NCBI GenBank assembly: GCA_964016885.1
Contig: OZ024743.1
Location: 119,350,001-119,414,000, forward strand
DNA: 64,000 bases
From: Eledone cirrhosa
Taxonomy: Eukaryota
Direction: 5' to 3'
A model generated the notes under the pieces. That model searched no databases, was not told the origin of the DNA, and was given only the letters and a program-made list of their open reading frames with translations. Below are positions 3,762 to 55,714 of this stretch, one piece after another. The position numbers and the translations under genes were made by a program. How positions within the stretch are numbered: the stretch's first letter is position 1; each line of letters starts with the position of its first letter.

Positions 3762-3935
3762 TATAGGAACAAGTAAGACCCCGACGGCTGAGCTCAAGCC
3801 GTTTCGACGGCTAATTCTGAGTACAGAATTAGCCGTCGGGGTCTTACTTGTTCCTATTACCCACTCTACTACCCTAAGTATTGAGTACTTTGGTGCATTA
3901 TGGTCCACCTGGTTCCTTACCACATTTCCTTCGTT
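3762..3935. mobile_element. PLE-derived fold-back insert in (TA)n, family A (also 26619-27090 and 42816-42975)
   Basis: 27-bp perfect inverted arms ATAGGAACAAGTAAGACCCCGACGGCT / AGCCGTCGGGGTCTTACTTGTTCCTAT, an unpaired ~80-bp tail, (TA)n on both sides. Confidence 0.75.
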
Positions 3936-4279
3936 ATATATATATATATATATATATATATATATATACTAGCTGGCCCATCCGGCTGGCGCTCGGCTAG
4001 GTATACCGGCATTTTATCTTTTCAGGATTCCCTCCTCCACTCAAGTGCGAAAATACTACACGTCCTCTCAAGTAAGTGAGGGGTGGGGGGTTAACGTGCT
4101 CTGATGTTGGGTTTGAATAGTTTTTAGGATTCCCCAGTTCTGCAGCCAGTACGTTAAAGAAAATTGATAGTTACAACAATAAAGGCTGAACAGAGAACAC
4201 ATTGTTAAACAAACTTTACAATAATTTGTATAACCATAATGGAAATTCCAAGTAACAGAAAATACATAAATTACATTGT

Positions 4280-4470
4280 TAGAAACTCAGCGGATGCAAT
4301 ATTTTTTGTTCGGCCCTTGAGAGCAAAGATGAAGAGATTTTTGGCGAGCTCATCCTAGAGCATCCTACATACAATTGACCATAGGAGAAGCATGGTTTTC
4401 CCAGATGAAGGCCAGCCACTTTTAGGGTTTGACCCTGAGCTTTGTTGATGGTAATCACGAAGCTTAGTCT
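4280..4470 (-). pseudogene. Helitron RepHel Pif1-type helicase C-terminal remnant
   Basis: Manual translation RLSFVITINKAQGQTLKVAGLHLGKPCFSYGQLYVGCSR...NLFIFALKGRTKNI matches SF1/Pif1 motifs V-VI (TINKSQGQ; HGQLYVAxSR). Confidence 0.9.
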
Positions 4471-4663
4471 CTCTGTTGCCTAGTAACATTTTTTCTTCTG
4501 GAAAATCTGATCTTGCGGCCAGGCTGGGACTTTTTGGGTGGCATATCGGCAGTAACAATGACAATAAGCCGTCTGTGCTTTCGTGAAATAAATACGTTTG
4601 TTTATATTTTGTGTTTGTGTATGCAAAAATATCTGTACACGAATATATTATTATATATATATA

Positions 4664-4955
4664 TATTTTAAAAAAAAACAGATTAAATTTTAAGCAAAGA
4701 ATCGCTGCTTCCACCCTTAACGGGATCTTCTGAAACTAAAAAATCAATCTGTAAACGCAGAAGTAAATATTTCGAAAAACGTTGCAATCGAAGGAAAACA
4801 GGAAGACGATACTTTGGTTCGTGGCAATGAACGGAAAAAAGCGAAGATAATACGCCTGCAATGAGAACAATATTTGCTCTAGAGTTCTTATATATTTATC
4901 CTTATCGAGCCCTCTTTGGATTTTAGTCTTCACATTTATTATTATTACTAATTAT
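4664..4955. mobile_element. Family E hammerhead-bearing insert (minus-strand body plus inverted tail) nested in the Helitron
   Basis: Close homologue of 6685-6840, 27700-27953 and 54331-55335; flanked by TA runs. Confidence 0.75.
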
Positions 4956-5592
4956 ATATATATAAATATATATATATAATTAATTATTGAGAGGGCGTGC
5001 GGTATCTTTGCACTGCATTAATTAAAAGTTGGTTAGAAGCGCAGTCAATTCAGACAGACAGATATTATAAGCGTGCGACGTTATAGCTATGTATCTAATG
5101 CAGACAGCCAGACATACAGAGACATATAAGGGCATGACGTTATAGTTATGTATCAATCTAAAAAGACAGATTAAGAAAGAGAGAGGAATGTCGTATAACC
5201 GGAAGTGTTGACATTTGAAAATTTTAAGAAGTGAATATTTAAATAAACGATAAAATATTTTAATCTTTTAACGAACTTTAGAAGACTAAAATACCCCCAC
5301 TTTCTTACTTGGAAAAGTTACATCTATGGTGCAAATTTGGTGCTTTTTGGTACAGCCGTTTGGCGAAAAGTTTGTTACATACATACGGCCGTCAGCTTTA
5401 TAATATAGATATATGGTTATTATGTGAGTAACTTGTGGTTACTGTTACTAGCGGCGATGCTGGTCGAAGAACTCGATGCTGTTACCGTGTCCGTCTCTCG
5501 TTGGGTTGTGCTCCAGGTTTAAGGCGTTTGTAGTTTGCAGAGTGTATATAAAGTGACAATAAGAGTTGCAACTTTTGGGAAATTTTATTTCA

Positions 5593-5675
5593 TATTACAA
5601 TTGTTTCTGTATCGATCAGCTCGGGTTTGACCATGCGATCTGATCTCGACTCTTAATCGATACTTCTTCAGATAA
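5593..5675 (-). ncRNA. Type I minimal hammerhead ribozyme in a PLE 3'-end fragment (5411-5705)
   Basis: Minus strand: TAT-CTGAAGA-[GTATCGAT...ATCGATAC stem II]-GAAA-CAATTG (palindrome)-TA-ATA, followed by AATAAA. Confidence 0.7.
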
Positions 5676-5837
5676 GTGAGTTTACATGGGTGGTCCCATC
5701 ACTTTATATATATATATATATATATATATATATATATATATATATATATATATATATATATATATATATATATATATATATATATATATATATATATATA
5801 TATATAGAGAGAGAGAGAGAGAGAGAGAGAGAGAGAG

Positions 5838-52704: not shown

Positions 52705-53109
52705 ATTATATGATACAAGCGACGAACGCTTCATTAGTAGCTTGATTCTCGTAATAGCATTGGGTAATCAAACTGGTCCAGCAACAGAAATTTAACGTTA
52801 AATACCAAAGAAATGTATGTATTAGACGGTAAATGATGATGGGGAGTTAACTTACCGTTCTTTATATGTCTTTATATTTCAGGATAAAATCATTAATACA
52901 AGAAACTAGCAGGAGCTGTATATACTTTGTCCGTCTTAAGCCATTTTTCTTTCTTTAACATTTCAACATTATTTATATAATTTTAACATTCACCGCCCAT
53001 TTCACATTGTGGAACACTACTTTTTACGCTCCACAAAATACTTCAAGCAAACACCCTATATACATATATATATATATATATATATATATATATATATATA
53101 TATATATAT

Positions 53110-53706
53110 ATATTGTTATACTTTGGGAGGGTCATGTTGCCAATAACAAACACACGCACCAGTTGCTTTCACTTCAATTTATTATAAATTAAATTTATAA
53201 ATTTAGGAATTTATAAATTTCCGGTTGGTTGGTTGGTTACACAACCAGACGATTGTTCATATATTGTCAAAGTTCTTTCGTCTCACATTCTGTGACCTCT
53301 TCAGTGACTGGGGATTCTGTTCTTTGTTTTTGTGCCTCTCTTTGTTCTGTCCTACGCCATTTTGTTTTTGTAAAAATTGTTTTTGTAAAAATAAGATGGC
53401 GTAGGACAGAACAAAGGAGAGGCACAAAAACAAAGAAAAGAATCCCCAGTCACTCTGAAGAGGTCACAGAATGTGTGACGAAAGAACTTTGACAATATAT
53501 GAACAATCGTCTGGTTGTGGAACCAACCAACCAACCGGAAATTTATAAATTCCTAAATTTATGAATTTAATTTATAATAAATTGAAGTGAAAGCAACTGG
53601 GGCGTGTGTTTGTTATTGGCAACATGACCCTCCCAAAGTATAACAATATCGGTTTCAACACACGTTTTCAGATAAAGAATCTTGCTAAACAAATTCAGAA
53701 ACGAAA
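53110..53706. mobile_element. Fold-back of a Nematis-related PLE 3' end with hammerheads in both arms
   Basis: ~260-bp arms 53110-53370 and 53385-53649. Minus 53266-53308 reads GTCA-CTGAAGA-GGTCACAGAATGTGAGAC-GAAA-GAACTT-TGAC; terminus shared with 37799-37822. Confidence 0.88.
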
Positions 53707-53775
53707 TATATATATATATATATATATATATATATATATATATATATATATATATATATATATATATATACATAT

Positions 53776-54310
53776 ATATATCAACTAGAAATAGATTGAC
53801 ATATACTGTATATATATAAAATAAACATATGAAACAATCACGGGGAATAATTTGTAAAGTGTGTAAGCACAGATAGCTAGGTAGGTAACTAATTAAAGTT
53901 TAACAAGAACTTCAAATATAGATACCTTTTAAAATGATTAATTTTCTTTGTATATATTTATTTAAATAAAAAATATATTTCACCAATTAATCGGTAAATC
54001 ACAGTAGTCAAATATATTTTTTATTTAAAGAAATATATACAAAGGGGATTAATCATTTTAAAAGGTATCTATATTTGAAGTTCTTGTTAAACTTTAATTA
54101 GTAACCTACCTAGCTATTTGTGCTTACACACTTTACAAATTATTCCTTGTGATTGTTTCATATGTTTATTTTATATATATACAGTATATGTCAATCTATT
54201 TCTAGTTGATATAAAATGCTCGGATCTATTCATTGGAATCTTTGAGCTTATTCTGCAGTGGATATGGCGTATGTCTCTCTGACATGACAACCCTTAATTT
54301 AATTTTTGAT
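53776..54310. mobile_element. AT-rich fold-back insert with a tail, between (TA)n tracts
   Basis: ~205-bp arms 53776-53980 and 54010-54213; tail 54214-54310; no complete hammerhead core seen. Confidence 0.8.
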
Positions 54311-54330
54311 ATACATATATATATATATAT

Positions 54331-55335
54331 ATATTTATTAAAATAACAGATTAAAGTTTAATCAAAGAATCGCTGCTTTCACCCTTAACGGGATCTTCTG
54401 AAACTAACAAAGTCAATCTGTAAACGCAGAACTGGATATTTCAAAAAACGTTGCAACCGGAGGAAGACAGGAAGACGATACTTTGGTTCGTGGAAACGTT
54501 CGCTGGCTAAGAACGGGAAAAAACGAATATAATACGTCATTAATAGGAGCGGTGAAAAACAATTACGCGCAAAGACAGAACCACGTTTATGGTATAAAAG
54601 AGGTCGTAGACTAATGTTCTCTTAGGTGGTTCATAGAGACGTTCTCTGGCAATGAACGAAAAAAACGAAGATAATACGTCATATGTGGGGCGTGGAGAAC
54701 AATAGCACGCAAAGTCAAAACCACGTAAATGGTATAGCAGAAATCGTAGACTAAAATTCTAACTAGGAGACCGAATGAATCTCCGCTACAGAGTTAAGAA
54801 CAAAGTAAATAAATACATATATATATAGTAATAATAATAAATTTGAAGACTAAAATCCAAAGAGGGCTCGATAAGGAAAAATATATATCAGATATATAAG
54901 AACCGTAGAGCAAATATTTATTAAAATAACAGATTAAAGTTAAAGCAAAGAATCGCTGCTTTTACCCTTAACGGGATCTTCTGAAACTAATAAAGTCAAT
55001 CTGTGAACGCAGAAGTAAATATTTCAAAAAACGTTACAACCGAAGGAAGACAGGAAGACGATACTTTGGTTCGTGGAAACGTTCCCTGGCAAAGAACGAA
55101 AAAAAACGAAGATAATACGTCATTATTTGATGCAGTGAAAACAATTACACGCAAAGACAAAACCACGTTTATGGTATAAATGAAGTCGTAGACTAATATT
55201 CTATTAGGTGGTTCATGGAGACATTCTCAATGAACGGAAAAAACGAAGATAATACGTCATTTTGCTTAAACTTTAATCTGTTATTTTAATATATACATAT
55301 ATATATTAAAATAACAGGTTAAAGTTTAAGCAAAA
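54331..55335 (-). mobile_element. Family E tandem: non-coding 583-bp period with a hammerhead in each unit (retrozyme-like)
   Basis: ATATTTATTAAAATAACAGATT at 54331 and 54914; hammerhead-like motifs at 54355-54405 and 54938-54988; internal ~135-bp subrepeat; short inverted ends 55261-55335. Confidence 0.7.
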
Positions 55336-55460
55336 TGTATATACATATATATATACATATATGTATATACATATATATACATATTTGTGCACAGGTATTC
55401 CAATATATGTATATATATATATATATATATATATATATATATATATATATATATATATAT

Positions 55461-55714
55461 GTTGACTTAAAACTGAACTATCCACAAGTGTTTTTTAACC
55501 TTCATATCATGTCTTCCTGTTTTATCTGATGAAAACACAAATATTATTGCATGATGATATTTGTTTTTGAAATGCGCATAATAAAATACATGGAACTCTT
55601 TTAACCATCTTTTGTTCTTATATATTATGTATACTCCAGTCCTACAAACTGTAGAGTGCTTCTTATCCGATATCTGCATTGCTTTATTGTACTACAATAA
55701 AACTCACCTCCTAC
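55461..55714 (+). mobile_element. Solo 3' end of family D PLE with hammerhead and tail
   Basis: Reverse complement of 9390-9642. Confidence 0.88.

Follow-up and report, generated by a model that had tools for sequence, protein, structure and literature searches.

A bulged hairpin that occurs twice in tandem ahead of the open reading frame (ORF) of Hydra-clade Penelope-like elements (PLEs) marks the positions at which the inserted copies of these elements end. We describe it from a 64,000-nucleotide stretch of the Eledone cirrhosa genome (the window; assembly GCA_964016885.1, contig OZ024743.1, positions 119,350,001 to 119,414,000; coordinates given without a locus name are those of the window) and from additional loci of the same genome. 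There are two hairpins, their stems covary, element ends fall at two positions, and inverted insertions carry one end of each kind. The hairpin is a genuine cis-element, new for a retroelement clade that is itself known; its positional rule is strong, and its mechanism is one that we infer.

The one-sided tail of PLEs, together with the question of what fixes their internal reverse transcriptase (RT) start sites, is a problem as old as the description of the elements. The tail itself, the hammerheads and the inverted pseudo-long terminal repeats (pLTRs) of PLEs are already known. As far as the available part of the paper extends, a 2024 in vitro study (PMC11167929) showed two RT starts, not the signal that sets them.

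From an octamer to a hairpin

The initial annotation of the window had noted an octamer, YHGAGYVC, in the unpaired 3' tails of different PLE families and had suggested a cis signal for the element enzyme or a downstream promoter element. Its 11 listed octamers are all present at their reported coordinates and strands. Over the whole window the motif is only weakly more frequent than expected by chance (both strands together have 39 matches, and dinucleotide shuffles made kilobase by kilobase average 30.5), and its interest therefore rests on position. Tails were collected with a fold-back detector blind to the motif, which took insertions between microsatellites from the window and from 1.2 Mb at six other places in the genome and yielded 1096 segments, including 107 tails of 25-400 nt (length peak 80-100 nt) in 40 clusters. 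These tails are enriched in the octamer, which 58 of the 107 contain; of the 40 cluster representatives 9 have it, where shuffles average 0.9 (maximum 5, 300 shuffles).

The octamer sites are genuine, but each represents only the 3' strand of a hairpin, the 5' strand of which lies 10-75 nt upstream. At all listed sites the hairpin has the form RYUC, a short upper stem whose loop varies widely in length, a U or UN bulge, and GARY. Two of the sites set aside as weaker look-alikes, at 12298 and 54242, are true members, the former by virtue of a compensatory change; the one near 31028 is also a member, with its actual 3' strand at 31036-31043 rather than at 31028. A further member at 54864 on the minus strand had been missed. 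A descriptor of the hairpin drawn from the window sites matches 14 of the 40 tail-cluster representatives (shuffle mean 0.46, maximum 3, 300 shuffles), compared with 1/40 on the reverse strand; in a second control it matches 9/27 tails and 1/27 arms. Among clusters that have no similarity to the window, 8 of 25 contain it, against a shuffle mean of 0.38.

A second hairpin was recognized first in marine metagenome loci, where the 5' untranslated regions (UTRs) show two tandem hairpins before the ORF start, and this led us to expect that read-through copies from E. cirrhosa would have another one shortly beyond the tail end. The predicted hairpin 2 was found in read-through copies of families 0, 1, 2, 5, 6, 21 and X, and in the family at 31 kb (cluster 15) with a U-A bottom pair. 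The resulting layout, hammerhead, hairpin 1, hairpin 2 and ORF start, is clear in 8 of 10 families examined. Among the functions proposed in the initial annotation an RT signal comes nearest, but the second hairpin, which explains the tail, had been overlooked.

Element ends fall at the two hairpins

Ends were mapped on eight natural read-through references, counting those between -20 and +3 of a hairpin, windows that together cover about 20% of the reference length. Of 195 ends that join a microsatellite, mostly TA, as expected of (TA)n insertion, 190 lie at hairpin 1 (91) or hairpin 2 (99, including 11 of family 3), with modal offsets of -6 to -10, on the 5' side of the hairpin; offsets refer to the start of the microsatellite and may be off by a few bases. 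All 57 ends in a fresh 400 kb fall at one or the other hairpin, at a median offset of -6. The two end sites are 67-117 nt apart in this genome and, since the ends fall at the two hairpins, the tail is the hairpin-to-hairpin interval.

The ends are also coupled. Of 69 pairs of ends from inverted insertions, 66 could be classified, and 64 of these combine a hairpin-1 end with a hairpin-2 end (p 3e-17 against an independent 50% choice); the fresh 400 kb gives one end of each kind in 15/15. Partnerless ends occur at both sites, amounting to 19 of 99 hairpin-1 ends and 27 of 103 hairpin-2 ends. A conserved, position-fixed cis signal of PLEs, as the initial annotation had supposed, is borne out.

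Structure and covariation of the hairpin

Covariation was counted in 62 hairpins anchored by sequence only, a set in which the anchors fix two pairs by construction and some mis-anchored rows are included. Immediately above the bulge, 26 hairpins have a C-G pair and 21 a U-A pair, with pairing in 52/62 against 35.9 in permuted sets, and the next two pairs of the upper stem are likewise in excess (50 against 29.9 and 42 against 24.6). At the bottom of the stem, 46 hairpins have G-C and 10 have A-U. The bulge reads UU in 37 hairpins, UC in 12, UA in 9, UG in 2 and otherwise in 2, the anchors having permitted U or C in first place; a single-U bulge is found in one family. Twenty metagenome hairpins have 24 both-sided changes where 9.4 are expected (none of 500 shuffles reaches 24) and are 95.7% paired, compared with 22-59% in slid controls. 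After removal of 7 of the 62 hairpins as mis-anchored or mutated, G.U exceeds A.C by 17 to 5 in the unselected upper stem of the remaining 55, which favours the sense strand.

The distance from the tail-less end to the 5' base of the stem is nearly constant (standard deviation (SD) 3.3 nt), whereas the distance to the bulge and octamer is not (SD 14.4 nt; n=17), spanning 14 to 65 nt from end to octamer; the ruler is thus the folded structure. The unpaired letters 1-5 nt past the stem are conserved as R-C-U-Y-U across all hairpins, and a GAGnnCTC quasi-palindrome is formed in 24 of 55; this may reflect some alternative pairing or a contact made by the single strand.

The secondary structure is like that of HIV-1 TAR and 7SK. 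Searched against Rfam in 20 loci (66,896 bases), the hairpin gave no match at the gathering score; for the window as a whole, the 150 matches listed of 231 are all below that score and nearly all microRNA-like artefacts. The hammerhead was considered as the identity of the hairpin and rejected, as the hammerhead core lies apart from it, 30-120 nt upstream, and the covarying stem does not fit the hammerhead form; nor does this stem fit the SECIS or H/ACA forms. MAFFT misaligned the short-loop hairpins, and a covariance model was therefore built from 20 of 31 metagenome hairpins. Although made from metagenome sequences only, it ranked seven member sites first in the window. The sites at 6992 and 54242 came up no better than E 3.7-4.7, and those at 5873, 9446, 27727 and 55652 were missed on the element strand in the window scan.

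Carrier elements

The motif is not general to PLE families, contrary to what had been proposed, as every carrier that can be linked to an ORF belongs to the Hydra clade. The carrier families precede or trail ORFs that have RWK, DKT and CxCx5C motifs and lack CCHH, features by which the clade is defined in the consulted portion of PMC8557442. R-x-R-W-[RK], with RWK in place of GxKF/Y, and DKT in place of DKG are present in families 0, 1, 2, 3 and 21. The CxCx5C linker, a C-terminal GIY-YIG endonuclease (EN) domain, CxxC and CxH at the end of the EN and the absence of CCHH are seen in a 738-aa ORF (L125:6069-8282) and ten fragments. Hammerhead cores lie upstream of hairpin 1 in families 1, 2, 3, 6, 21 and X, with no Rfam match at the gathering score. 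Family 1 has at least 150 copies that are 94-100% identical over the N-terminal 160 aa, many with an intact 738-aa frame, and has thus probably been active recently.

In a quick tree, four carrier families and 16 database homologs form one group apart from the other PLEs of the genome (SH-aLRT 100, on a long branch; the tree contains no named reference Hydra protein), within which the families of this genome are a single subclade. The ORFs of different families are only 30-54% identical in amino acids and the signal recurs in other phyla; judged by these sequences, the carrier families are one clade but not recent relatives, and the concern that motif-bearing families might be close kin does not apply.

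The tails at 26.2, 29.5 and 53.65 kb lack the motif, as reported initially, and all three come after CCHH-type, non-Hydra ORFs. The two PLE ORFs of the window were accordingly rejected as carriers, both being non-Hydra and linked to hairpin-less tails. One, with RT and GIY-YIG domains of the CCHH type (Neptune-like), lies at 23453..25150 (+) and is followed by a 40-nt tail at 26231-26270 without the hairpin; the other is a broken ORF of family B at 38456..40376 (-), relatives of which end in the hairpin-less tail type of 53646-53705. Both serve as contrast cases. For family B, a pattern search aimed at finding a read-through copy yielded, in the six loci viewed, nothing but copies that end at microsatellites.

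Conservation beyond this genome

Downstream of the hammerhead, the hairpin can be seen by eye in the published consensi of coral Hydra-2_Amil and sea-cucumber Hydra-2_Ajap, and in Hydra-1_Ajap two copies stand at the 5' start. A search with five 9-letter forms of the 3' strand gave four occurrences in the Hydra file, always within hairpins, compared with three in the Naiad and Chlamys files, which are far larger. Among 78 Hydra-type loci of the marine metagenome set, for which the descriptor was fixed beforehand, 57 have a hammerhead core. The strict hairpin form is present in 14 of 27 metagenome hammerhead clusters (shuffle 0.86) and a relaxed form in 23 of 27 (shuffle 5.3, maximum 12), and both hairpins, spaced 55-83 nt, were found in 35 of the 78 loci. 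The coral, sea-cucumber and metagenome elements that keep the hairpin are about 35% identical to those of this genome.

Proposed mechanism and alternatives

In the simplest reading, each hairpin is probably an RNA dock for one protein subunit that sets the start of reverse transcription just upstream. On this proposal, the read-through RNA would bind the ORF protein, which is probably dimeric, at both hairpins, and the GIY-YIG domains would nick both strands of a (TA)n target. One of the resulting 3' ends would prime upstream of hairpin 2 and copy hairpin 1, giving the tailed end, and the other would prime upstream of hairpin 1, giving the tail-less end; the two truncated cDNAs would then join head to head. 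Tail length would equal the hairpin spacing of 55-117 nt, and the coupling of both starts on one ribonucleoprotein would give the one-of-each rule.

Several observations weigh against the docking model or limit what supports it. Family 3 has only a degenerate 3' half of hairpin 2 and nonetheless a tailed end (11 ends), and in the 5873 family the sole read-through copy carries an insert of 85 nt, with an A as the bulge of its hairpin 2. Three of the six published Hydra consensi are without a match, Hydra-1_Amil and Hydra-1_Obim ending tail-less and Hydra-1_Crog being deviant. End mapping is weaker in the metagenome: of 23 alignment ends, 9 coincide with hairpins and 5 with contig ends (offsets of -2 or -3 in 3 of them), and the other 9, lying elsewhere, look like subfamily divergence. 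Other PLE clades make two ends without this hairpin: the non-Hydra families at 26150-26270, 29417-29545 and 53585-53705 have two preferred ends about 33, 62 and 56 nt apart, and inspection by eye of these three intervals found no analogous duplicated signal. The covariation counts ignore relatedness among the sequences, in addition to the two pairs fixed by the anchors. Folding energies show no preference for the sense strand (28/55) and do not clearly separate RNA from DNA. Finally, the fold-back arms are symmetric and contiguous in 43 of 53 measured, which a snap-back of the cDNA explains equally well.

Such a snap-back is the main rival to the docking model, although we regard it as unlikely. 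It supposes a single start before hairpin 2, after which the cDNA folds back on itself and hairpin 1, acting as single-stranded DNA or as a protein-bound RNA/DNA structure, serves as a stop or as a mark for endonuclease resolution that produces the tail-less end. Like two docks, it yields one end of each kind, and in the parts of PMC3846280 and PMC8557442 that we consulted self-priming with EN-mediated resolution is proposed. Extra sequence lies on the tailed arm in 8 of 10 unequal fold-backs, in line with this course of events, but in the other 2 the tail-less arm is the longer. Partnerless hairpin-1 ends are moreover about as common as partnerless hairpin-2 ends, and the two hairpins share one form and the same 6-8-nt offset, suggesting one job. 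In Poseidon_Ac (PAc) both starts are used directly on RNA, according to the accessible text of PMC11167929.

It is improbable that the RNA is cut 6-8 nt upstream of the hairpins, by a host nuclease or an element protein, and that RT starts at the new 3' ends of the two RNAs. A constant distance from the stem base is typical of structure-guided nucleases. RNA-seq read ends do coincide with RT starts in PAc, yet the main template there is unprocessed RNA (both from the portion of PMC11167929 at hand). Two independent RNAs would give mixed ends in about 50% of insertions, unless the RNAs were sorted, against the 79 of 81 seen.

The octamer might instead be a linear signal in double-stranded DNA, either a nick or recognition site for the GIY-YIG domain, in the form of the GAGnnCTC quasi-palindrome, or a downstream promoter element. 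The initial annotation had suggested both functions, and we consider both very improbable. The run-on into GAGnnCTC, the conserved unpaired letters past the stem and, for a promoter, the location in the 5' UTR are what such a site would predict, and the D. virilis tail is reported to be needed for EN cleavage, as cited in the available text of PMC11167929. Covariation with a strand 10-75 nt away is meaningless in duplex DNA, though, and the ends track the 5' base of the hairpin and keep no fixed linear distance to the octamer; the flanks of the insertions are microsatellites, not the motif. Shared recent descent or chance, with the motif a neutral leftover among related families, has next to no likelihood and is already contradicted: all ORF-linked carriers are indeed one clade and those of this genome one subclade, but the ORFs have diverged as given above, the surrounding tails do not align, the pairs covary, the hairpin is kept in the coral, sea-cucumber and metagenome elements, and the enrichment holds across tail clusters, in the metagenome and in clusters unrelated to the window.

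Returning to the two-dock model, a more specific version draws on the analogy with TAR and 7SK. The bulged U may cap a U.A-U base triple that binds an arginine, with R-x-R-W-[KR] or R-x-R-x-R as protein partner, which we put at somewhat short of an even chance; the arginine columns R36/R38/[RK]40 and R512/R514/R516 are conserved in 96 ORFs. With similar reserve, we suggest that a duplicated TAR-like arginine-sandwich hairpin, kept from cnidarians to echinoderms and in this genome, might load a dimer of a telomerase-related RT, of which each subunit would prime one of the nicked target strands 6-8 nt upstream of its own hairpin, both on a single RNA. If true, this would amount to a two-dock, two-primer integration that explains both the PLE tail and the inverted pLTRs, and to a portable signal that directs where cDNA synthesis starts.

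Members and other features of the window

Family 0 is represented by hairpin 1 at 3863..3886 (+), in the fold-back insertion 3763-3940 (left a hairpin-1 end, right a hairpin-2 end), and at 42864..42887 (-), in the fold-back 42810-42976; its read-through copies elsewhere show hairpin 2 and a Hydra ORF. In the 230 nt that precede its tail end there is no canonical hammerhead core. This family does have an extra stem about 35-55 nt ahead of hairpin 1, followed by a UU bulge and GAGC (3766-3854, 42896-42973 and locus L277), near the turning point of most family-0 fold-backs, whose arms are mostly 42-76 nt. Family 5 has hairpin 1 at 4876..4910 (+), in the insertion 4672-4953, at 27729..27774 (-), with a G.U bottom pair, and at 54866..54911 (-), the member added here, and a read-through copy with hairpin 2 is known; its fold-back at 6687..6839 (+) has hairpin 1 without loop and 3' strand (an internal deletion), with both ends at the usual places.

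The single-U-bulge family is present at 5875..5894 (-), with a 5' strand that is mutated here and intact in other copies, downstream of a hammerhead core at 5945..5966 (-) located by a core pattern scan; its read-through copy (L320) runs into a Hydra-type ORF start. A long-loop hairpin 1 of cluster 10 lies at 6994..7040 (-). A large fold-back of family 2 at 9390..12188 has 1243-nt arms, a hairpin-2 (tailed) end on the left and a hairpin-1 (tail-less) end on the right, and contains hairpin 1 at 9448..9472 (-) and a hammerhead core at 9531..9577 (-); a solo tailed copy of the same family has hairpin 1 at 55633..55657 (+) and a hammerhead core at 55526-55572. The hairpin 1 of this family has 299 pattern matches genome-wide, and most among the matches listed run on into hairpin 2.

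The remaining members are hairpin 1 of family 6 at 12300..12323 (-), where a compensatory U-A replaces C-G; of family 21 at 30517..30543 (+), with a hammerhead core at 30414..30451 (+); of cluster 15 at 31013..31043 (+), for which two read-through copies elsewhere have the hairpin-2 variant 8-9 nt past the tail end; of family 1 at 37587..37606 (+), the family with intact 738-aa Hydra-clade ORFs; of family 3 at 44246..44264 (-), in the fold-back 44205-44374; and a hairpin with a 3-nt or shifted bulge at 54218..54247 (+).

Neptune-like PLEs were also encountered outside the window. Tandem copies from L024:8787 to L025:7156 have a separate 427-aa upstream ORF that overlaps a 777-aa RT-EN ORF. Six copies of Neptune-like family A (L137, L144, L146, L148, L154 and L159) have a descriptor match in the 3' UTR, 180-780 nt past the ORF stop; it precedes an internal microsatellite by 40-68 nt and is not located at the end of the element. 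These matches may be chance or a separate element. Within the window, an abundant short interspersed element (SINE)-like repeat of about 180 nt, copies of which are 73-95% identical, occurs at 8931-9126, 13123-13280, 17564-17746, 20004-20161, 22237-22428, 40439-40625, 46945-47396, 52541-52709 and 57369-57847. ORFs of 199 and 586 aa at 60663-63286 (+) presumably resemble a non-LTR (long terminal repeat) retrotransposon RT with a restriction-like C-terminus; the 586-aa ORF has no Pfam match at E 0.001.

Significance and relation to known systems

From a compact, covarying RNA element, both ends of an insertion can be predicted to a few bases even in families that have diverged deeply, with a one-of-each rule that is nearly perfect. 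The RTs of PLEs are sister to telomerase, and their positioning on RNA bears on telomerase origins as well as on RT-based gene insertion tools. The hairpin is diagnostic for non-coding remnants of the Hydra clade, and the mechanism is testable with a 200-nt RNA in a genome that holds many near-identical intact 738-aa ORFs. Neither the searchable literature (text only, without figures and subscription journals) nor Rfam describes the hairpin, its occurrence in duplicate or the rule for the ends, and the accessible text of a 2026 retrozyme preprint (10.64898/2026.07.22.740005) and of PMC4209133 does not mention it.

The closest experimental system is PAc, which we know from part of the published report (Frangieh et al. 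2024, PMC11167929). In vitro, its RT initiates at two internal positions, which delimit the tail, and needs RNA 3' of these starts (to +172). Cleavage and extension affect both target strands, and the protein is predicted to be a dimer. As in PAc, the elements described here have two end positions bounding an optional tail, a hammerhead upstream, AT-rich targets and, on the proposed mechanism, template needed 3' of the start. The systems differ in that the PAc tail is 30-40 nt and lies inside the ORF, compared with 55-117 nt in the 5' UTR here, and in that the PAc start is described as lying inside an AC-rich stem loop while a conserved bulged hairpin lies 3' of each end here; for PAc, that part reports no RNA element that is both conserved and duplicated.

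The carriers share with the Hydra clade (Craig et al. 2021, PMC8557442, consulted in part) the RWK, DKT and CxCx5C motifs, the lack of CCHH, hammerheads, (TA)n targeting and a one-sided tail. The hairpin is visible in three of the six new consensi of that study, with two copies in Hydra-1_Ajap; the portion consulted ascribes the tail to EN-mediated resolution and does not mention a hairpin. It reports a small number of Hydra families, whereas those of this genome are many, diverse and abundant.

In sequence, the hairpins match the base arrangement of the arginine sandwich motif of HIV-1 TAR and 7SK SL1, as given in the part of Pham et al. 2018 (PMC6189040) available to us: a paired base, a bulged U (with 0-2 further nt), G-C and A-U, here a pyrimidine bulge after a paired base and then G-C and A-U. 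The commonest form equals 7SK ASM3 (A39-U40-U41-G42-A43) and the single-U form of one family equals ASM4 (C62-U63-G64-A65). Unlike in TAR and 7SK, the bulge here belongs to the 3' strand, which runs away from the loop, and the likeness is one of secondary structure, with no homology implied.

An RNA structure sets RT at a fixed start in several other systems, including hepatitis B epsilon, the R2 3' UTR and elements of telomerase RNA. Compared with these RT-docking stem-loops, two identical tandem docks appear here to define both ends of one insertion.

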